Shown here: one piece after another, positions 4,545 through 35,422 of the stretch
Layout of the letters: the number at the start of each line of letters is the position of its first letter
Position numbering within the stretch: the stretch's first letter is position 1
Virus record (IMG/VR): IMGVR_UViG_3300028423_000861
Location: 1-64,000 of that record
Source of the DNA: a virus
DNA: 64,000 nucleotides
Reading direction: 5' to 3' (one strand)
Position numbers and translations under genes: made by a program
Notes under the pieces: model-generated
Databases searched by the model: none
Told to the model about the DNA's origin: nothing
The model's input: the letters and a program-made list of their open reading frames with translations, nothing else

Positions 4545-5009
4545 TTATTTCTCTTTGTCAAATACATCGAACATGCTTGTATCAATACCACCCAGCTTCA
4601 TCATGGTAAGAAACTCATTATACTGTTCACGCAAGGACTGATTTTCTTCTAGAATTTTTCTTGCATGTTCAGTCTTTAAATCCAATGACGTTAATTTGTA
4701 TGACATTTTATCACACGCATTCGAAAAATGTTTTACCTTATCATTTAGTTTTGATATTTCATCCTTTGATGACGCTAGAGATTCTGCCGTGTCCTGGTCA
4801 ACTTGTAAAATCCATTCAGAATCATATTCATAATATGTTTCATATGATGATGAGTGATCGAATCGAACATCCTGGCTTCTATTTTTGATATAGATATCTT
4901 TAACAGTTATATTATGATGTTCTAATTTATTTCGTATATGTCTGATTACATAATCAAATTCATATTCCCTCTCGGGCCCATCCACATAACTGGAAATTCT
5001 ATAAGGCAT
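4545..5009 (-). CDS. Hypothetical coiled-coil protein, MxKL family
   Basis: Ends LREQYNEFLTMMKLGG... Confidence 0.65.
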   Translation of the reverse strand: MPYRISSYVDGPEREYEFDYVIRHIRNKLEHHNITVKDIYIKNRSQDVRFDHSSSYETYYEYDSEWILQVDQDTAESLASSKDEISKLNDKVKHFSNACDKMSYKLTSLDLKTEHARKILEENQSLREQYNEFLTMMKLGGIDTSMFDVFDKEK

Positions 5010-22643: not shown

Positions 22644-22673
22644 CAAGAGGAGGGCGGTTCCACCCTCCTCTTG
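22644..22673. terminator. Intrinsic terminator-like hairpin after nampt
   Basis: CAAGAGGAGGG/CCCTCCTCTTG 11-bp stem; overlaps the TTGACA box of the next promoter. Confidence 0.75.
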
Positions 22674-22677
22674 TTTG

Positions 22678-24072
22678 TTATGAACGTGCTCTAGTAACTA
22701 CATCCTGCCAGTCTGGTTGTGAAAGAACTTTACCATTCTCGAACACAGTTTCCAGACGATTCACACCAGGATAACGCATGTCGCCCTTGAGTTCATCCTC
22801 ACGGATAGTTTCAAATTCTCCATCCTTTTTAACAAGGGCTAGTCGACCACGTTTACTACGCTTTCCTGAATCAGTAACAGGATCTTTATAAACATCTTGC
22901 CATTCTCCATTAATCTGGATAGCAGAACATTTCATTGCAAATCCCATGGTATCACGGTCACTTGCCTGTAATAGAGCACCTCCCATTCCAAATGCAATAT
23001 TACTAATCGAGTAACCTTCATCAACCAGGTTGTTCATGATTTCTACAACACTGTCATGATTGATACCATCACCCTGAATAACACGGACATTATTTAGAAC
23101 ACGATATCCTTTTGTATTGAGTGTGCTACCGAATGCTTTGTCCAGTCTTTTTACAACTTTAACCGGGACAGTGGTTGGATCGCCACTATCGGGTCTCACA
23201 ACCAGCATGGCATCCATTTTTTCCACTCGATCGCGTAGCTCTTTGCCCCAGAGGTTTTCGGTTGCATTCCAGATATCATAACTGTCACTCACACAAGCCA
23301 AAAGCATCCCGCCACCAAATTGGTCAATCATGTTCTCAAATGCACGGACCTCATTTTCACGACCCCAGCTAGTAATAGTGGAGTGTTCGCTTGCTGGAAT
23401 ACTTGCGGCAGTGCCTTGTGCAGGTGCATCGTAGTATTTCATAGCATACATCAATGCAGTGCCTGTATCGGTGCCCATGAAATTAACCAGATGTGCTGCA
23501 CCCCCGATCGAGGAGCTCTCAGAGCTACTGACACCCCTTGCACCGAAATCATGCAGTTTGAATGCAATTTCAGCATCTGCATCATCTGCGGTTTCTTTAA
23601 GACGCTGGTAGATCTTGTCGCGAATCGTGCCGCTGAGTGACGCGACGGTAGTAGGATACCATACACGCATGAGTTTTGTTTCAACCCAAGTAGTAAGCCA
23701 AAAGAATTCTGGATCAGTGTTTACCACTTGAACTAGCACGTTACCGTGTTTCATGCGAGTTCCCTCGGGCGCTGCCTGGATTCGGAGCGGTAGTCGCCCC
23801 TCATGCTTTTCCACAATCCTCATCCAACCCTTTCGGTTGAACGGCAGACCCTGAGCAGTCCAAATCTTATCGGCATAATCAACATCTTCCGCAGTGATAG
23901 GAGTTGCCAGCTCTTCTAATATTTGTTGCAAGCCAAAGAATGTAACCTGCTTCCAAGGGTTCTTTCTAGCTTCTACATAACTTGACACATATTCTGTGCC
24001 GGGTGGGTATTGCTTCCACATACTCACTTTGTATGAGTCTGTATCTAGTAGAATTGAATTGTATTTTGTCAT
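22678..24072 (-). CDS. nadV: Nicotinamide phosphoribosyltransferase (Nampt)
   Basis: TDSYK, WYPTTVA, LHDFGARG, PASEHS, VSDSYD, VRPDSGDP, VIQGDG, AFGMGG. Confidence 0.97.
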   Translation of the reverse strand: MTKYNSILLDTDSYKVSMWKQYPPGTEYVSSYVEARKNPWKQVTFFGLQQILEELATPITAEDVDYADKIWTAQGLPFNRKGWMRIVEKHEGRLPLRIQAAPEGTRMKHGNVLVQVVNTDPEFFWLTTWVETKLMRVWYPTTVASLSGTIRDKIYQRLKETADDADAEIAFKLHDFGARGVSSSESSSIGGAAHLVNFMGTDTGTALMYAMKYYDAPAQGTAASIPASEHSTITSWGRENEVRAFENMIDQFGGGMLLACVSDSYDIWNATENLWGKELRDRVEKMDAMLVVRPDSGDPTTVPVKVVKRLDKAFGSTLNTKGYRVLNNVRVIQGDGINHDSVVEIMNNLVDEGYSISNIAFGMGGALLQASDRDTMGFAMKCSAIQINGEWQDVYKDPVTDSGKRSKRGRLALVKKDGEFETIREDELKGDMRYPGVNRLETVFENGKVLSQPDWQDVVTRARS

Positions 24073-24091
24073 AACTAATCTCCTTAGTTTT
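24069..24091 (-). promoter_or_regulatory. SD-in-loop hairpin upstream of nampt
   Basis: AACUAA-GGAGA-UUAGUU-AUG; 23 nt identical to 31021-31043. Confidence 0.75.
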
Positions 24092-24616
24092 TGTGTTTGC
24101 GGTCATTCGTTCTCCACGACGCCGCATCCGTGGTTTTTTCTAATTGTTTCGACCACGAATCCTTTAAGCTTAATTCTCTCATTAAGCAATTCTATTTTAT
24201 CGACTGGAGTTTGATCGATAAGTTCGTTCAAATGATCAACAACTTCTAACATAGGATCATACATGCATTCTTCACAGGGGTATTGTTGATGAGTCTCTCC
24301 AGAAATTACTGGACAATCATCATCAAAATACTTGCATCCATGATAAACACAACAATGTGATGCATGAACCCCTGTTTGATTTGCCTTTTCAAAGACCATT
24401 AATCATCTCTATCGATTACGTTTATACATTTTTCCTGCCAGTCTTGAACATCTCCCGTGTCCGGACCAAAAATTGCTCCGAAACTAAGTCCAACAGTTTC
24501 ATCTAACATTAAGTTATCGCCATCCTGAACTTTGAGTTGTCCGGTATATTCATCAATACGTGTGACTGTGCACAGGTATTTGCCGTCAAGAGTTGCCTCC
24601 CAAATATTGTCGGACA

Positions 24617-25669
24617 TCAGAGCATCTCCATAATAATTGAATAGTGGTCCTCGAAAAGCAATTGTGGATTTTCTTTCACAAAGCTGATCGGATACCATGC
24701 AGCGTCGATCGCATCGTCTCCGCCTTTTACTCGAAAAAGTGATTTCCCATCAGGGAATTTGAATCTAAACGCTGTTGTAAGAGTAAACCCTCTGACAGAA
24801 CGACTCGGATCATCAAATCTTCGCTCTTCACCCGTGTAAAAACCGCGAAGCTTACCACGTGGAATTCGACCTCTTTCATCCTGGATGCCTGCTTCTTCCC
24901 AGAGTTCATAGAGAACGTTTTCGAAACTGTCTCCTTTGTGAGGATCAACAAAACCACCAGGTAAAGCCAACTGTCCCTTACCTGGGAATCCGCCCCGTGT
25001 AACAAGAAGAATGTGACCCATTTGGGTGCAAACAGCGTCACACGTAATGAACGTAGGTGGGAACGGGCTGTTCGCCCAGCTTTCTTTATATGCATCCATC
25101 CATTCTTTTTCTTCCAAAACATAACGGAATTCTTCTTTTTCATAGAATTCCACGAGGTATTCTAGGACTGGCTCAGGAACCAATCTAACCGGAAAGTGCG
25201 GAGCTCTCTGGAAATAATTTTCACGAATTTCAGTCGCGCTAAGAGTAGCGAACCCTCGCTCCATCATGATTTGTTCGGCATTCGGGAAAAGATCTAGGTA
25301 ATAGCTACTGGCATCTTTCTTGTATCCAATGATACCAAGAGTGTCATCTTTTGACAAGTGTTTGTCAACGGCTGCATAGACATTGCCGAGCCATTCATCG
25401 TCATTTCCAGGAACATCGGGCAACGGTTCAACGTATACACGAGAGATATCACCGTCTCGTGCATTGTGATCGTGTCGGAATGCTTCCTCGATCATGCGCT
25501 CACGTTCTTCGAATGTCCAGGGATTTTTGAATGAGCGAGCTTTATTGCTCCCTCCGACTAGGACGACCACTCGTTCAGCGTGTTCAAGTCCAAAGTCAAT
25601 TAAGTGTTTGTGTCCCATATGAAATGGCTGGAACCGGCCGATCAGAAAGGCTGTGCTTACCTTTGTCAT
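24617..25669 (-). CDS. nadM: Bifunctional NMN adenylyltransferase / Nudix ADP-ribose pyrophosphatase (NadM-Nudix)
   Basis: GRFQPFHMGH, KNPWTFEER, SATEIR, LALPGGFV, ELWEEAG, GGDDA, FEDHY. Confidence 0.95.
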   Translation of the reverse strand: MTKVSTAFLIGRFQPFHMGHKHLIDFGLEHAERVVVLVGGSNKARSFKNPWTFEERERMIEEAFRHDHNARDGDISRVYVEPLPDVPGNDDEWLGNVYAAVDKHLSKDDTLGIIGYKKDASSYYLDLFPNAEQIMMERGFATLSATEIRENYFQRAPHFPVRLVPEPVLEYLVEFYEKEEFRYVLEEKEWMDAYKESWANSPFPPTFITCDAVCTQMGHILLVTRGGFPGKGQLALPGGFVDPHKGDSFENVLYELWEEAGIQDERGRIPRGKLRGFYTGEERRFDDPSRSVRGFTLTTAFRFKFPDGKSLFRVKGGDDAIDAAWYPISFVKENPQLLFEDHYSIIMEML

Positions 25670-25712
25670 AACAAACTCCTTGTTATCTATATCTTGCAAA
25701 CTCTCCGCTTGC
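25668..25712 (-). promoter_or_regulatory. Tandem GGAG(A/U)-loop hairpins upstream of nadM-nudix
   Basis: GCAAGC-GGAGA-GUUUGC and AUAACAA-GGAGU-UUGUUAU(G), the second covering SD and start codon. Confidence 0.7.
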
Positions 25713-25838
25713 GTCCTTATTTATCATACTACATTATTGATTCAGTTTAGTCATTACGAATTTTTCACCCATAACGTCTTGGATATTCTTTCGGGTTCTT
25801 TGCCAGGAATCCAAATAGAACGATTTCGAAAACAGACA

Positions 25839-28806
25839 TTAAAATCCAACACTTACCGGGCCGCGATGTGAAACATAATATCCAAGATCATCAACCGTGT
25901 TAAAAGAAGTCAATCCGCTTTGGAATGCACCCATTTTGAACATCACGAGTATTTCGGATATTTGTTCTTTTAACCACATCATTTCACCACGCTTTAAGCC
26001 CTGGCGGCCTCGAAAACGAACATCCACTGCCCCGGTCCGAGAAACCCTCGCAACAACAGCACAATGATCTTTATCAGTAGGAGTATACCAATTGATATCA
26101 TCTCCAAAGCTGATTTCATAAATTGTATGTGTTTTGATACGGTTTTCTTCGTCTTGTTTCAATTCTCGCACAAAGACATCACCATTGGCGATTGATCTTT
26201 CGATAATAGGACGCAAGATTTTAGTTTGTCGTCCTTTTTTCTTCCCCATCATACATTCCCATCTTGAACATTACTGTATATTCAGAACTGATATCAGCAA
26301 TATGTTTGCTGGCTTCATCGGTTATATCTTCTGTTTTAAGATTAATTCTCATACGATTATTAAGAACACGATCACTTGTGTTGTAGATAATCCAATCAAG
26401 TCTCCAGTATTCAATTTCTGCAAATCTAACAAAATAGGAATAATACGCTCCCCTGTCAGAAATCAGAACCTTGTTGTCCTGAAAAGATTTCTTGATTGCC
26501 CGCGCCACCGATTGAGAACGAACACCTGTATGATCATAACTTTGCATATCAAATCGTCATCTTGTGCATTACCCAGAGCTCGTGACTGAGTTTATTAACA
26601 TAACCAATAGAGGTATGGCTCATAGGAACACTTCTTAAATTCCATTGTGAGAACCCATCTATTACACAGTCTTTTCTGGTTACGTGACTATTTACATCTG
26701 TAGCTACGAACCATTCAGTCCAAATGTTTCCATCATCACGACAATGCCAATATAGATCTGCTCCATATTTACTAAACATATCATTAACAAAAAATCCGAT
26801 AACGCCTGTGTATGTTCTTACATCATGCTCGGGACCCAGTTCTATTTGTCCATGATTAAACACTTGCAACTTGTCTGAATTCTGAAGAACCCTGTTTAGG
26901 AACATGCGATCATAACGAATGTCTTCGATAAATTTAATCATTGCCAAGCTTTTGCATTATCTGATATTCACTCAGGGTTTTAACCAGCCACTTATGAGTT
27001 TTAAAACTCACTGTAACTGCTACACCGCCGTGGACTATGATAGTATGAGGTCTATAATTAATCTTGTTGGGTGTAAAAATAATTCTTGCAATTTCTTCAG
27101 TTCTTAGAAATTGGGTATCAGCATACGGAACAACTCTGTCAACCAATGCCATCCATCGATTGTCATCAAGCCGATAAAAATCGATAGTATTATCTTTCAT
27201 GGCACGATTAACAGCACAGCGGACAAAACTGTCAGTGTCTTTGAAATCGTTTATAGTGGATTGTTGGTATGGGTTGTCTTGATTCATATTGAAGTTACAG
27301 ACATGTCATCGTTATCGTCATGGACAAATTTACCCTCGAGCTTGGCCATGGTAAGAATTTGCTCAGTATAAGGACGAAAACGATTCTTGAGAGCTTGAGA
27401 TTTCACCTTGCGCACACTGGCTGGGCTGCTACGCTGATGGAAATCGCGAGCAAGATCACCATCTTTGTCGATTGTAAAACCGTAACAACGACCCAAGCCG
27501 TCACGAAATTCAACCATGAGCTGTGATGATCCAGATGACCAATCAGTGTAAATTTCGGTATCATAGGAATTATCATCCCAAGCTTTTAAAAATGCCTGAT
27601 ACATGTGGTTTCTTTGTTGATGATACCCTTTGATCACCAGAACCCATATGGTTGCATATACTGCAAAAACAAGACCAAGCAAAACTAGTAGTGTAGTAAA
27701 CATTAAATCATCCTCAAATTTTCCCGTTCTTCAGGAGTTTTATATAGGTGTCTATCGTGCATAAAATATCCATCTTCTGGACATCTTTTATCATAATGGA
27801 AATTCATAATGTCTCGAAAATGATATCGAAACGGGTCGCCTTCTTCATAATTATAACCATCGGTGATAAGGCTGTCACCGCTGATTTTAGCCATTACATA
27901 TCGTTCATTTAGAACTTCCTGCAAATCATGGTATGACTTGTCTTTGTTAAGTAGGTAAGGACAGATGGTATCACGGAGATACCCAGTGTAGCTGTCGGGG
28001 AGAAACCACACATACATATAATACCAATTAAATTTAGGATTGGATTTTGGATTGTTTATGTTTCGGAAAAGCAGTATAAATTTTTTATTTTCGGGTTTGT
28101 TCATACCACTGTGGTATCGAAATCCATCTGACATGTTTTCTAGAAAGACATTATCCGACTCTACTTGTCGGATAATGTCGCTCATATTAATTGTAGCCAT
28201 GTTCTTGCGTGTCATTTGCTACCCTTCTTGGGATCGAAAACAAACGTCTGTAAAAATACTTTACCCATTTGCTAATTTCCACAGCGTATATGTCTCATCT
28301 GAAATTTTCATAATTCGTTTTCTTTGTTTACGAGACATGGGATAATGTTCAGTGTCGTTGATTAACATATAACAAGACTCGAATTTTTGACTAACAGGAT
28401 CATATAACCATTCAATATGATCAAATTGAAATTTGTAAGTATTGTTTTTTAGGTGTTTGAGAATTTCATCTTTGGGTTCTGTGCCAAGATATTTACAATG
28501 TTCAAAATTCAATTCAGCTGTCTTGGATTGAACCTCTTGCAAAGATAATTTCAATGCACTCATATGAGATTTCAAACTGTCTGGAGGTAAATACTTTTTC
28601 TTTTCATTGAGCATTTTCGCTCTGGTTAATTTTATAATATTGACATTTTGATGGTTATTAACAACACTGTCAACAATATTTTTTGTTTTGAACCGTCTAA
28701 AGATCTGTTTAAATAACCAGAGAAATTCTTTGGAATCGAGTAACACAGCAAGACTGAAGGACACGCCAGCCACTATAAGGCTGGCGATCAAAAAATCAAG
28801 TATCAA
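25839..28806 (-). CDS. Run of seven hypothetical ORFs of the MxKL family
   Basis: 25839, 26221, 26549, 26934, 27284, 27703 and 28261 carry SEILVMFKM, SEYTVMFKM, HELWVMHKM, SEYQIMQKL, EQILTMAKL, NERYVMAKI, DETYTLWKL. Confidence 0.7.
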
Positions 28807-29282
28807 GGTTGTTGTTCCACGTTGAACACGAACGTGCCTCGCTCCTTCCACATACGAACAACACGGTCACGGTCTTCGAACACCATACTGATCGGCTTGT
28901 TGTATTTTTTCTCGAGACGATCAGCATGAAGACGTTTTTGTTCTACATCCGGCGTGTGCTGGTCACCTTGCTTGAGAAGAAGTTCGTCAGGCAGTGGCAG
29001 ACCATTACGCTGGAACCAATCCACAGTCATGTCATACACTGCATGATCACGCCCGCTGAGAACAACCACAGTCACATCTGGGTCATTTACAAATTTGTGG
29101 TAAAAGTATGCGACTTCGTCAATCAGTCCGTCATCCACACATGCAGCATGGAACAGGTCAAAACGGCGCTTGACCTTTTTACCTGTCTCAGGATCAACAG
29201 CCGGATCTGGCCGGATATGATGCATACGATGACGCACGTCAGCCAGCGTTCCGTCAAGATCAAAAATCACAAGCATGATCAT
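28803..29282 (-). CDS. HAD phosphatase, PNK 3'-phosphatase-like (T4 PseT C-terminal half)
   Basis: FDLDGTLAD, LSGR, DVEQK, FEDRDRVVRMW. Confidence 0.88.
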   Translation of the reverse strand: MIMLVIFDLDGTLADVRHRMHHIRPDPAVDPETGKKVKRRFDLFHAACVDDGLIDEVAYFYHKFVNDPDVTVVVLSGRDHAVYDMTVDWFQRNGLPLPDELLLKQGDQHTPDVEQKRLHADRLEKKYNKPISMVFEDRDRVVRMWKERGTFVFNVEQQP

Positions 29283-29315
29283 CTCCTCTATTACACTTAC
29301 ACTATAACCGATGTG

Positions 29316-30392
29316 TCATGCCGTGTCAAGAAGACTTTCAATGCTGTGATCTTTTTGAGTTCCAAGCATGTGATCAATTGCAATACTTACTTGATCAACG
29401 CGACGTTTACGATTAGTCTCGGTGATCACGACCTGTTCTGAATTAAACAATGGTTGATTGATAAATTTGGTATTTTGCAATATCTTGCCATAAAATTCCA
29501 TTCTTTCCGTATATGATGACATCACTCTTGATCCATCATCAACCCATTCCAGAAGGGGAGGAACGTATACCCAGAGATCAAAAAACTGTGTATACATTGC
29601 CATATCGGGTCCTAGCTCTTTGATATCTTTATTAATATAATACTGTGCATAGAGCCACGTCGTGATCATTTCAGTATCAACGAAAACTAGACCTGTCTCG
29701 GTTTCTTCAGTGGCTTTTTTGATCATAAAGTTGTGGCGGTAAGCGATTTTGAAAAAATCATCTTGCGATAAATTATTCAACTGGGCTTCGCTGAGAACAC
29801 GTCCATATTCATAAACTGCCGGGCTATTGAAAGTCCTAGCAAGGTCACTGACAAGTGTGGTTTTGCCAGAACTCTCAGGACCAACTACCACTACCTTTTT
29901 GGCCCAAAGTGGACGCATTTCTTTACTGATATATTTCCAGTTTTCAAGAGGGTTTTCACGTATCTGTGTCCCGCTGATGTCAAATAGCTCACGATTTGGA
30001 TCTACCGGGAACCATTCGATTCCCAGGCGTTTTGCCATTTCTTGACCATACATATCGGACGACACAACATAATCTGCATTGGGAGCATATTTTTTAAACA
30101 CACTAACCCAATAATCCCAGAAATCTTCATCCAGTGCAGTCCCGTTCTCATCGTATGCACGGGCTGGGCCATATCTATCACCATGATGTAGAAAAGTGAT
30201 ATTGTCATGATTGGCATACTTCTTTGCTATAGTCCGAAAATGGTCTGGACTAGACATGACAAAATGATCATCAGCACTCACAATGACTACGAGTTGATCT
30301 AGTTCATGTGCAGCCATTTCGATCATGAGTTCATGCCCCTTGTGTAGGGGCATGAATTTTCCAATTGTTATTCCGACAGTTTTCTTGACCAT
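29316..30392 (-). CDS. nadR: NadR-type NMN adenylyltransferase / ribosylnicotinamide kinase (no HTH)
   Basis: GKFMPLHKGH, ISGTQIRENP..W, GPESSGKTTL, EYGR, WVDDGSR. Confidence 0.93.
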   Translation of the reverse strand: MVKKTVGITIGKFMPLHKGHELMIEMAAHELDQLVVIVSADDHFVMSSPDHFRTIAKKYANHDNITFLHHGDRYGPARAYDENGTALDEDFWDYWVSVFKKYAPNADYVVSSDMYGQEMAKRLGIEWFPVDPNRELFDISGTQIRENPLENWKYISKEMRPLWAKKVVVVGPESSGKTTLVSDLARTFNSPAVYEYGRVLSEAQLNNLSQDDFFKIAYRHNFMIKKATEETETGLVFVDTEMITTWLYAQYYINKDIKELGPDMAMYTQFFDLWVYVPPLLEWVDDGSRVMSSYTERMEFYGKILQNTKFINQPLFNSEQVVITETNRKRRVDQVSIAIDHMLGTQKDHSIESLLDTA

Positions 30393-31024
30393 TACACGAT
30401 CTCCAGTGCTGGTTCAGATTCTTGTTTTGCATAATCACGATACCACGCGATTCCGCCGATGGTAGCAAGAACTAGGAATAAGACATATAGACCGCTTGTA
30501 ACAACCAGTCCTTTTGCATAGTATACTCCGATAGCAATCACATCCATGGTGACCCAGAGAACCCAGCTTTCACGATATTTCGCAATCATGAGCAATTGTG
30601 CAGCAATACTCATCCAAGTAGTCAGAGCATCTATATAAGGGAAACTAGCACCCACAGTGTAGTTCGCTACAAGATAGCCGTTTACACCGGCGGCGCCGAG
30701 TATACCCAGACCGATTAGTAGAAATTGAACCACAGTAAGTGATCTCACAACGCTGTCGTTCTCAGCTTGTCGCGCGGCCCTACGCCACATGACAAAGCCG
30801 ATTAGCTGCATGGGTAGATAGAACAGGATTTGCAATCCTGCATCTGAATAAAGTCCGAATTGAAAGAAAAGATATCCGAAAAGAATGACACCTAGAGCGC
30901 CAAAAAACCACGTCCAAATATTGTGCCTTATAGCAAGGTAGACGCAGATTGCGGAAAAAATGGTCCCAAATAATTCAACTTTGCCTAGGGGACCCGCAAA
31001 GTATGCGAGAATTGTCTCGATCAT
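30392..31024 (-). CDS. pnuC: Nicotinamide riboside transporter
   Basis: Multi-TM; LYSDAGLQ, PYIDALTT.MSI.AQLL, ESWVLW..MDV; adjacent to nadR. Confidence 0.95.
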   Translation of the reverse strand: MIETILAYFAGPLGKVELFGTIFSAICVYLAIRHNIWTWFFGALGVILFGYLFFQFGLYSDAGLQILFYLPMQLIGFVMWRRAARQAENDSVVRSLTVVQFLLIGLGILGAAGVNGYLVANYTVGASFPYIDALTTWMSIAAQLLMIAKYRESWVLWVTMDVIAIGVYYAKGLVVTSGLYVLFLVLATIGGIAWYRDYAKQESEPALEIV

Positions 31025-31070
31025 AACTAATCTCCTTAGTTTTGTATAACGCTAGAACTCCTCTAGCGTC
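31021..31070 (-). promoter_or_regulatory. Tandem GGAG(A/U)-loop hairpins upstream of pnuC-nadR
   Basis: GACGCUAGA-GGAGU-UCUAGCGUU and AACUAA-GGAGA-UUAGUU-AUG. Confidence 0.75.
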
Positions 31071-31121
31071 AATATTTAGTCTATGTTTGTATGTCTGTCT
31101 TGTCAAATTGTTCTTAGAAAA

Positions 31122-31148
31122 ATGTCGGCATGATAATCATGCCGACAT
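31122..31148. terminator. Perfect inverted repeat / terminator
   Basis: ATGTCGGCATGAT-A-ATCATGCCGACAT, with a T-run downstream on the minus strand. Confidence 0.75.
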
Positions 31149-31157
31149 CAAAAGTTG

Positions 31158-31424
31158 TTAGTCGGATTCAACTGCACCGGTTTTTGGAAAGCATTGCATT
31201 CCAGCCGGATGTGTCTGTCCCCAAGCCATAACACAAGTCATACCTTGTGCTGTTACTGGCGTCCATTCATAAACACGAACATCGAGACCTTTGGTTTCAA
31301 CTCGATAAGCCGCATCGGGTTCTTTGGGTTCAAGACCGGCATTTTTGCTCCAGGTCCAGAGATCAGCATGTGCTGCGGTTGCCATGAAAATAACAGCAAC
31401 GGCAATAATTGAGAGTAGTTTCAT
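31158..31424 (-). CDS. Small secreted protein
   Basis: Signal peptide MKLLSIIAVAVIFMATAAHA; paired cysteines. Confidence 0.7.
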   Translation of the reverse strand: MKLLSIIAVAVIFMATAAHADLWTWSKNAGLEPKEPDAAYRVETKGLDVRVYEWTPVTAQGMTCVMAWGQTHPAGMQCFPKTGAVESD

Positions 31425-33055: not shown

Positions 33056-33977
33056 CTGGAAAGTTCTAGCATCGCCTGTTGAATTCCGCCTAGCTCGGTA
33101 TAGCATGAAAAGATCTGGTCATCATAGCTATGACCTTCGCTGTTCAGTTTCATGCACTGCTTTTGGTAATCGGTAGGCTGTTCAGGAATTTCTCCTTCAT
33201 AGAGCGATCCTACCTCTCGCAGCTGAGATTCAATTTCAGCACTGATATTAACGAGGTTAAGCAACGAGTATTCGTTTTTGATGTAGTAGTTTTCCATAAA
33301 GGTTCTCCTTAGAACAAAGACTGTTTGAATTCGGTTGCGTCGGGTTCGTTGCCCCAATACAGGACGGGTTCACCAAAATAGGTGATTTCGCCAACATAGC
33401 AATTTGCTGGCACAATGTATTCCTTGTCATCGTAATGCGAAACATGGACACGAAGCGTCTGTTCTCCGGGCTGAGCTTCGTCTTGCATCATATCTACAAG
33501 GTGGTAGACAAAGTCCCGCGGTGAATCAGCAACAGTGTTGTCGCTGCTATAAGGAGTCGTATCTTCAAGCCATTCCTGTTCACGGTCTGCAAACCAGGGG
33601 TGAGTTGTGCTGTGATAGTTTGCGATACACGGCTCGGGTGCTGTGGCACGTCCGTATTGCACACCTGCATAAACAGACAGCGCGACAGCACCGATTGCAA
33701 TAACAACTCCTGATGTATATCCTGGCATTTTCATTAGAAAAGACTCCCTCTCTGTTCCCACAGTTCCTGGTTTTTCATTTCTTCTTCCTCCCATTCTATC
33801 ATGAGATCAATAGCTTCATCAAGAGTGATATCACAAGGCCCATACTCAAAATTCTGTTCTTCAGCCATCGGACAAGAACCTTCTTCAATGTAATAAAGAG
33901 TGTGGTCTGGCCGAGAATAAATCGTGATATGACCATGGGCTTCATAGTCAAACCACCCGGCTTCAAAGACAATTTCA

Positions 33978-34730: not shown

Positions 34731-35422
34731 CTATTTTTTAGATAATTTGAGGAATATTTCAGCAGTGCTTTGATCTGCTTGCTGGCGCGCGGGAAGATTG
34801 AACGGAATCTTGCATAAGTCGGTAGCGAAGCCATGTATGCTTCTGGATTGCGAAGTGTTTTTTGCGGATCTTCCGTATCCGAAATTTCCTGTGCTAGAGT
34901 TTCGCCATAAGCCATGAGTTCATGTGGATCACGTAGATACTTGCGAGCCCATTCACGCGCAGATGTTGCAGTGGCGGCTTTTTGATATCCACTCGCCATT
35001 TTATCGAGATTTTTTGGAGGAATTCGCCCATGCTGCCCTTTGTGCACTAGTTCATGACTCACAAGACGATTTAAAATCTTTTTAAATGTTTTTGGGCCAT
35101 AAACACCTTCCATGTTCTTGGCCTTGAGTATTACGGTGATGTCTGTAACAACATCACCATCCTCGGTCGTTCCGGTTGTCGCTTCGGCACTCATCCACCA
35201 ATCCACGGTAGGTTCATCATGATCCACGGCAAAATCCATGCGTAGATCCTCGTCTACGCTTGAATTGAGAAGATCTGACAACACGTCAATGTTATCAACG
35301 TCGTCATGTGATTGTAAATACTCATCATACTCTTCCAGGGCTTCATCAACGCCCTGCTCTAGAGTTTCTAAATATTCCTTGTCCGGATAGACGTTCGCCT
35401 CGGTAATATCACGTATTCTCAT
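34727..35422 (-). CDS. Hypothetical late protein with HExxH motif, possibly virion-internal
   Basis: ATAAATA directly upstream; N-terminus MRIRDITEA; SHELVH...HELMAY. Confidence 0.6.
   Translation of the reverse strand: MRIRDITEANVYPDKEYLETLEQGVDEALEEYDEYLQSHDDVDNIDVLSDLLNSSVDEDLRMDFAVDHDEPTVDWWMSAEATTGTTEDGDVVTDITVILKAKNMEGVYGPKTFKKILNRLVSHELVHKGQHGRIPPKNLDKMASGYQKAATATSAREWARKYLRDPHELMAYGETLAQEISDTEDPQKTLRNPEAYMASLPTYARFRSIFPRASKQIKALLKYSSNYLKNS

Follow-up and report, generated by a model that had tools for sequence, protein, structure and literature searches.

Two-hairpin leaders before the NAD-salvage genes of a phage and their likely membership in a widespread nadM/nadV leader family

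Introduction

Several described RNA elements share parts of the arrangement reported here. In the operators of Escherichia coli thrS (read by threonyl-tRNA synthetase, ThrRS), phage T4 gene 43 and gene 32, and the MS2 replicase gene, hairpins lie upstream of or enclose the Shine-Dalgarno sequence and the AUG, and a conserved loop is combined with a free stem; the thrS operator has two hairpin domains that are read by dimeric ThrRS. In the guanidine-II riboswitch (mini-ykkC), a short variable linker connects two small hairpins whose loops resemble each other, and the second hairpin lies beside the ribosome-binding site (RBS). Leaders controlled by CsrA/RsmA and the 5' stabilisers cryIIIA STAB-SD, the SP82 polypurine stabiliser, and ompA hp1 present GGA loops, one of them on the Shine-Dalgarno sequence, or have a 5'-terminal hairpin or Shine-Dalgarno-like sequence that serves no gene. 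Cis-regulatory RNAs are also known on genes for nicotinamide adenine dinucleotide (NAD) metabolism, in the form of the class I (nadA motif) and class II (pnuC motif) NAD+ riboswitches, the latter of which acts at the Shine-Dalgarno sequence of pnuC. Here, we describe three leaders found in the window, that is, the first 64 kb of the 141,983-nt IMG/VR virus record IMGVR_UViG_3300028423_000861 (41.6% G+C; the record is estimated to be 60% complete). Each leader is composed of a distal hairpin, P1, and a proximal hairpin, P2, and the three precede the NAD-salvage genes nampt (nadV), nadM-nudix, and pnuC-nadR.

These leaders differ from the described systems in several respects. Unlike the thrS-type operators, a single element is shared by two or three genes of a pathway and not confined to the gene of its reader, it spans bacterial phyla as well as phages, and its reader is a candidate only. 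The NAD+ riboswitch classes are internal-loop or pseudoknot aptamers, whereas the nadM/nadV leader is made of simple hairpins. Guanidine-II has invariant ACGR loops that base-pair with one another; in contrast, the loops of the nadM/nadV leader are not self-complementary, the P1 loop varies by lineage, and the P1 and P2 loops differ from each other in most members. Readings based on CsrA or on a 5' stabiliser fit only the loop variant of the phage studied here and not the family, and the nadM/nadV leader is gene-specific rather than global.

We are confident that the three leaders are selected cis-regulatory RNAs and belong to a widespread family of two-hairpin leaders of nadM and nadV. This family is apparently uncatalogued: no Rfam 15 family matched, both NAD riboswitch classes included, with only tRNA and tmRNA reaching the gathering score in the window and 20 loci and nothing meaningful appearing at E values up to 10 in positions 23900-31300 and two canonical members, and a literature search found no description of a two-hairpin nadM/nadV leader.

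Results

Three two-hairpin leaders in the phage genome

The genes of the region all lie on the minus strand. The first-pass annotation of this DNA had listed five hairpins with a GGAGW pentaloop (W, A or U) on that strand, and all five are present. At nampt, it had claimed the proximal hairpin alone; this P2 was borne out, but a distal P1 had been overlooked, and the total is thus six hairpins that make up three two-hairpin leaders (Table 1). The Shine-Dalgarno sequence occupies the loop of each P2 and adjoins the AUG, and the distance from the GGAG of P1 to that of P2 is 26, 27, and 32 nt in the three leaders. The 23 identical nucleotides said to be common to the nampt and pnuC leaders are indeed there, at 24091-24069 and 31043-31021. 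When folded, each leader adopts the two hairpins as both its minimum-energy and its centroid structure, with z-scores of -3.4 to -5.0 relative to shuffled sequences.

Stems of this length around the pentaloop are rare. GGAGW occurs 378 times on both strands of the 141,983-nt record, and the number of sites with pairs directly flanking the pentaloop decays geometrically with each added pair (238, 85, 23, 18, 6, and 3 sites). Stems of at least 6 pairs were observed 5 times in the whole record, compared with approximately 1 expected from this decay, and all 5 are NAD-gene sites. A chance origin of the hairpins is rejected both on this rarity and on the covariation found in relatives.

The leaders are also specific in their placement. 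In the 142-kb record, they sit before nadM-nudix and nadV, as well as pnuC-nadR, and were not found elsewhere. The architecture had been said not to occur at other RBSs, and a scan of 599 candidate sites in the phage genome and the fetched loci, each defined as GGA followed after 4-10 nt by an ATG that opens at least 70 codons, agrees with this. A stem of at least 5 pairs encloses a GGA pentaloop at 31 of 64 NAMPT sites and 18 of 50 NadM sites, even with false internal starts counted in, and at just 4 of 477 sites of other genes, one of these four being a small open reading frame (ORF) that heads a nadM operon. In the phage genome itself, the sole other GGAGU pentaloop hairpin at an RBS (33738-33752, minus strand) is weak, with 5 pairs of which two are G-U; it has no P1, and the ATG 3 nt downstream of it opens a 141-aa ORF whose product has a hydrophobic N-terminus.

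Related phages carry the leader, and both of its helices covary

A nucleotide search with the 8.6-kb locus found no match among GenBank phages, and a search for relatives based on PnuC returned one useful viral locus, with a PnuC of 57% identity. Before its pnuC come a promoter, a P1 with the loop GUGGU, and a P2 in which 7 pairs enclose GGAGA and the stem continues into the AUG. The whole record of this phage, G017, contains the same set of pnuC, nadR, nadM, and nampt with three two-hairpin leaders, whose P1 loops are GUGGU, GUGGU, and GUGGA and whose stems all differ from those of the study phage.

NAMPT homologues were found in 51 viral contigs, in most of which the P2 stem differs while the Shine-Dalgarno sequence is still in the loop. 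In these contigs, P1 lies approximately 35-40 nt upstream of the AUG and has a variable stem and a nearly invariant AUAGA loop closed by G-C, and the two-hairpin element also precedes nadM. Across the family, the distance from loop to AUG is 34-43 nt, and that from loop to loop is approximately 24-30 nt, compared with 26-32 nt in the study phage. Ralstonia phage RsoM2USA and two further contigs likewise have P1 and P2 before nampt.

Covariation in the leaders of other phages had been proposed as a check on the first-pass annotation, and it is present in both helices. In an alignment of 33 leaders taken from other phage contigs only (A1), 90% of cells are paired in the two-helix structure, compared with 58% after shuffling and 25-45% when the partner columns are slid. 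Double-sided changes account for 117 cells, compared with 34 in shuffled alignments, and this number was reached in 0 of 500 shuffles. Several G-U pairs in the alignment fit the sense strand only, which argues for RNA rather than DNA as the conserved structure. With stems that covary, loops that are kept across many genomes, and these strand-specific G-U pairs, the suggestion of an RNA-level mark specific to NAD-salvage genes stands.

A covariance model, R1, was built from this alignment and hence from other genomes only. At a match threshold of E up to 0.05, it matched 21 of the 24 whole phage records searched, which measure 10-353 kb: 19 records have two matches, one has a single match, and one, with a split nampt, has three. 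One match is always at nampt; the other, where it was checked (8 records and the fetched loci), is at nadM or at a small ORF directly upstream of nadM. Scores were weak in the 142 kb of the study phage, where the model ranks the nadM leader first (25 bits, E 0.019) and the pnuC leader second (20.7 bits, E 0.145) and does not match the nampt leader. A third match there (35068-35128) falls within an ORF and lacks hairpins like those of the leader; it was set aside as noise, as were weak matches in contig G025 and in bacterial genomes outside nadM and nadV. The P1 stems of the lineage with GGAGW or GUGGW loops are of unequal length and did not register in a MAFFT alignment of that lineage (A3).

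Variants of the arrangement occur among the relatives. The phage with the closest NAMPT (L093, 69% identity) has three successive hairpins before nampt (776-796), first one with an AUAGA loop, then one with a GGAGU loop, and then a P2 identical to that of the study phage, and it looks like an intermediate between the AUAGA and GGAGW loop types. In the phage of locus L040, nampt is split into halves of 233 aa and 249 aa by a 378-aa ORF, which by eye resembles a GIY-YIG homing endonuclease, and a full two-hairpin leader precedes each half (2944-2997 and 4877-4932). A conserved protein of 123-125 aa takes the leader in place of nadM at loci L015 (644-1015) and L064, where it heads an operon that continues into nadM. 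Other related phages have genes between nadM and nampt (L013, 1947-2926; L021, 2238-2699; L004, 2470-2934; L030, 1994-2455), which, judged by eye, presumably encode a protein with an ADP-ribose-binding macro domain and one akin to nucleoside 2-deoxyribosyltransferases. Lastly, five near-identical and otherwise unrelated IMG/VR contigs (L095-L100) carry the exact 20-nt P2-AUG sequence of nampt and pnuC, without a P1, before the gene for a 444-aa protein that we assume, from its resemblance, to be a major capsid protein.

The P1 loop differs between lineages

The P1 loop of the relatives is AUAGA in the majority and otherwise AAAGA, AGAGA, GAAGA, GUUGA, NNGGA, or GUGGW, and in the study phage it is GGAGW. 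It is uniform within a genome and differs by 2-3 of its 5 bases between lineages. The GGAGA and GGAGU loops of the study phage depart from the majority consensus of an AUAGA loop closed by G-C, and because other lineages depart from this consensus as well, the P1 loop is lineage-specific rather than family-defining.

All three leaders of the study phage have the fold of the family, with a P1 in which a variable stem bears a purine-rich pentaloop, a linker of 8-16 nt, and a P2 that has the Shine-Dalgarno sequence in its loop and itself ends at the start codon or no more than 3 nt from it. They share with the family the order of promoter, pentaloop P1, short linker, P2, and AUG, as well as the target genes. 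They differ in the GGAGW loop of P1, which accounts for the low scores with R1, in the inclusion of a third operon, pnuC-nadR (as in G017), and in having one P1 inside the end of an upstream ORF.

On bacterial chromosomes, the leader is found almost only where nadM adjoins nadV

Bacterial NAMPT homologues were fetched from 80 genomes as loci of approximately 6 kb each. R1 matches the nadM and nadV leaders in Moraxellaceae (for example, on the chromosome of Faucicola mancuniensis), Neptuniibacter, and Teredinibacter, and the matched loci are flanked by housekeeping genes. When R1 was run across five whole bacterial genomes, the sole real matches in three of them were nadM or nadV leaders; in the whole-genome scans of Neptuniibacter and Teredinibacter, the weakly scoring leaders were not recovered, and the other weak matches are noise. 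Folding and a simple hairpin scan additionally found P1 and P2 with other loops in Variovorax and other Comamonadaceae, Acidobacteria, and Methylocystis; in these groups, as in Moraxellaceae and Neptuniibacter, the stems covary. The P1 loop is GUUGA in Comamonadaceae, on many covarying stems, and GGAGA, GAGGA, or AAAGA in Methylocystis, while in Acidobacteria NNGGA is found in the P1 and P2 loops alike.

Most nadV loci with an adjoining nadM (n = 58) carry both P1 and P2, approximately 35 by a strict count and more if interrupted stems are included. Among the nadV loci without nadM in the fetched stretch, 2 of 22 have the leader, and at least one of these two is near a contig end. Nothing convincing was found at the Pasteurellaceae and Neisseria loci that have nadV alone.

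Two bacterial loci are of interest for the proteins encoded there. In Neptuniibacter, a gene for NrtR (Nudix plus winged helix; locus L148, 387-1115, minus strand) is divergent from the leader-bearing nadM, and DNA-level and RNA-level control may coexist at this locus. In the NadM of Moraxellaceae (L151, 1319 onward; L134, 1264 onward), the GRFQPFH motif is preceded by an N-terminal extension of approximately 45 residues with a high content of Lys, Thr, and Pro, and this extension is a possible nucleic-acid-binding tail.

Genes, transcription units, and start codons of the region

The coordinates of the leaders and genes are collected in Table 1. The nadR-like gene has no hairpin at its own start and hence no leader of its own, and Pfam agrees with the earlier remark that the phage NadR lacks a DNA-binding helix-turn-helix (HTH). 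The hairpins had also been described as marking all three transcription units, which is correct insofar as three translation starts are marked, but the transcription units are probably two. The pnuC-nadR unit has a promoter of its own, and P1 begins so shortly past the -10 element that it would lie at or adjoining the 5' end of the mRNA. nadM is preceded by a 168-nt gap with weaker promoter-like sites, and nampt lies 30 nt behind its upstream ORF with no promoter-like site between, an arrangement that probably makes nampt an internal cistron of the nadM unit.

As for the start codons, the distal hairpin had been thought to have no gene to initiate. No start near P1 resembles that of a real gene, but two start codons are within reach. 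At 25699 (minus strand), the 3' arm of the nadM P1 contains a TTG in the nadM reading frame, from which translation would lengthen the protein by 10 residues; this codon is probably unused, as it lies just 3 nt past the GGAG of P1. An ATG at 24106 (minus strand) overlaps the TGA of the upstream ORF (ATGA), 5 nt past the GGAGA of the nampt P1, and opens a 46-codon ORF (23966-24106, minus strand) that passes through P2 and enters nampt in another frame. This ORF may serve in coupling, act as an upstream ORF, or have no role at all.

Table 1. Leaders, genes, and transcription signals of the NAD-salvage region (NMN, nicotinamide mononucleotide)
Feature	Position	Strand	Details
nampt leader P1	24099..24125	-	Interrupted 10-pair stem, loop GGAGA; covers TGA of upstream ORF 24103-24399; present in minimum-energy and centroid fold
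nampt leader P2	24073..24089	-	6 pairs, loop GGAGA; hairpin sequence identical to pnuC P2; AUG 24072-24070
nadM leader P1	25696..25712	-	6 pairs including one G-U, loop GGAGA; inside best R1 match (25667-25721)
nadM leader P2	25668..25686	-	7 pairs, loop GGAGU; stem takes in AU of AUG 25669-25667
pnuC leader P1	31047..31071	-	10 pairs, loop GGAGU; begins 6 nt past -10-like hexamer
pnuC leader P2	31025..31041	-	6 pairs, A/U-rich; loop is Shine-Dalgarno GGAGA; AUG 31024-31022
nampt/nadV (nicotinamide phosphoribosyltransferase, 464 aa)	22678..24072	-	Pfam PF04095, PF18127
nadM-nudix (NMN adenylyltransferase fused to Nudix domain, 350 aa)	24617..25669	-	Pfam PF01467, PF00293
nadR-like (NMN adenylyltransferase and kinase domains)	29316..30392	-	Pfam PF01467, PF13521; start overlaps pnuC stop
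pnuC (NMN/nicotinamide riboside transporter family, 210 aa)	30392..31024	-	Pfam PF04973, E 4e-46
Sigma-70-like promoter of pnuC-nadR unit	31078..31106	-	TTGACA, 17 nt, TAGACT
Terminator-like hairpin 3' of nampt	22644-22673		
Terminator-like hairpin and T run upstream of pnuC promoter	~31146-31118		Read directly from sequence

Discussion

Of the explanations considered here, the one we rank first, tentatively and at somewhat less than even confidence, is that NadM-Nudix reads the leader as a translational operator, and it is placed first because the leader tracks nadM. Such an operator would tune the output of the costly NAD-salvage enzymes. A protein encoded within the regulon, most probably NadM-Nudix, is predicted to bind P1 and to reach or bridge to P2, which would hinder binding of the 30S subunit, and the output of the salvage route, which consumes phosphoribosyl pyrophosphate (PRPP), would thereby be tied to the level of the enzyme or of NAD or ADP-ribose. 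NadV and NadM-Nudix together constitute NARP2, a pathway by which phages restore NAD and defeat defence systems that deplete it; NARP2 overproduces NAD and consumes PRPP, at a cost (bioRxiv 10.1101/2024.02.11.579819). This cost would be a reason for tight control. The same paper makes no mention of a riboswitch, an untranslated region, or a hairpin (bioRxiv 10.1101/2024.02.11.579819). The occurrence of the element in unrelated phages and several bacterial phyla implies that its reader either travels with the genes or is no macromolecule, and a P1 loop that is uniform in each genome and differs so widely between lineages suits a co-evolving protein better than it does a ligand pocket. A moonlighting NAD enzyme had already been put forward as the reader in the first-pass annotation, and this proposal would agree with one of our results, namely, that the leader is found almost only where nadM adjoins nadV.

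Several points weigh against an operator read by NadM-Nudix. Pfam shows no recognisable RNA-binding domain in the protein, which is not known to bind RNA. The co-occurrence with nadM comes from few independent lineages and from loci of approximately 6 kb, and a nadM elsewhere in the genome could exist. P2 is weak in A/U-rich phages and leaves the Shine-Dalgarno sequence exposed, which an enhancer would fit equally. The P1 of nampt is operon-internal here, so functions at the 5' end cannot explain every copy; equally, nothing in this forces a protein. Finally, with a record that is approximately 60% complete, phage-encoded regulators may have been overlooked.

A riboswitch, in which docking of the hairpins around NAD, NMN, nicotinamide, ADP-ribose, or PRPP masks or exposes the Shine-Dalgarno loop, would account for the restriction of the element to strictly one metabolic pathway, at one copy per gene, in phages and several bacterial phyla, which is a typical riboswitch pattern. 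It would also be consistent with the tight spacing between loop and AUG, with P1 and P2 loops that are alike in the study phage and in Acidobacteria, as they are in guanidine-II, and with the Neptuniibacter locus, where NrtR is also encoded and the RNA would add its own layer of control. Nevertheless, we regard a riboswitch as unlikely. The conserved bases consist of the pentaloop and the Shine-Dalgarno sequence only, and ligand pockets do not usually tolerate shifts such as the 2-3 of 5 bases by which the pentaloop differs between lineages. The P1 and P2 loops lack complementarity to each other, and no conserved junction or internal loop was seen. The linker, P2, and the first codons, searched by eye, offer the P1 loop no partner for a pseudoknot or a kissing interaction, and the known NAD riboswitch models gave no match.

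It is also improbable, in our judgment, that the leader is a passive expression cassette spread by common descent or co-transfer, in which P1 is a 5'-terminal stabiliser, ompA-like or here possibly a decoy ribosome site of the STAB-SD type, and P2 simply presents the Shine-Dalgarno sequence. P1 does begin a few nucleotides past the expected start site where a promoter is recognisable, and P2 keeps the Shine-Dalgarno sequence single-stranded. The exact P2-AUG sequence before the capsid-like gene, in one group of near-identical unrelated contigs and without P1, further indicates that such a hairpin can serve an unrelated and probably highly expressed gene. However, a generic stabiliser or enhancer would be expected at other highly expressed genes too, and even phage records as long as 353 kb contain just two copies, each at an NAD gene. 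Complete turnover of the stems has left an invariant P1 loop, and a passive hairpin needs no such loop; the nampt P1 of the study phage is not at a 5' end; and GC-rich bacteria have a stable 7-pair P2 that buries part of the Shine-Dalgarno sequence.

The geometry of the leaders in the study phage also brings to mind a CsrA/RsmA-type dimer of the host that bridges the two GGA loops and blocks the RBS. All six loops of this phage carry GGA; in each leader, one of the two GGA loops overlaps the Shine-Dalgarno sequence, and the 26-32 nt between the two lies in the range reported for dual-site binding by CsrA. Despite this, we consider control by CsrA highly unlikely, as most P1 loops of the family, such as AUAGA, GUUGA, and AAAGA, lack GGA, and the element, instead of belonging to a broad regulon, is found only at NAD genes. 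The first-pass annotation had raised a CsrA/RsmA-like geometry, which fails as a general logic: the GGAG distal loop is peculiar to the lineage of the study phage, and with a P1 loop that differs by lineage, neither a pair of GGA sites for CsrA nor a second Shine-Dalgarno sequence can be the logic of the family as a whole. CsrA (PF02599), RegB (PF10715), RegA (PF01818), and the NrtR winged helix were not found in the 142-kb record, which is, as noted, incomplete. RegB cuts GGAG, and an early mRNA controlled by RegB and RegA, as in T4, was considered and set aside, there being no match to either protein in the record.

The least credible alternative, operators at the DNA level in which inverted repeats are bound by dimeric NrtR, NiaR, or NadR, could claim the position of inverted repeats near the promoters of NAD genes and the NrtR encoded beside the Neptuniibacter locus, but the arms of the repeats vary freely around a conserved centre, which is the opposite of a dimer operator, the G-U pairs work on the sense strand only, and, whereas the NrtR operator is a 21-bp palindrome with conserved arms and the core GT-N7-AC (PMC2330246), this core is absent here, no phage NrtR winged helix was found, and the phage NadR has no HTH.

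A dedicated and conserved RNA element on the genes that rebuild NAD, shared by phages and the chromosomes of several bacterial phyla, points to a layer of NAD homeostasis for which we found no description. The study phage adds that the regulon can include the pnuC-nadR import route, that the distal loop can become a Shine-Dalgarno-like GGAGW with the architecture retained, and that the element can act at an internal cistron. At approximately 55 nt, the leader is small enough for direct testing, and cultured carriers are available in Ralstonia phage RsoM2USA, Faucicola mancuniensis, and strains of Variovorax and Neptuniibacter. It is possible, although doubtful, that the leader represents a metabolite-sensing class of RNA, or that its reading by NadM-Nudix depends on NAD or ADP-ribose, with the P1 loop as the sensor and P2 as the gate of the RBS. 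If this were true, phages and bacteria could turn on the rebuilding of NAD when the pool collapses, for instance, under an NAD-depleting defence.

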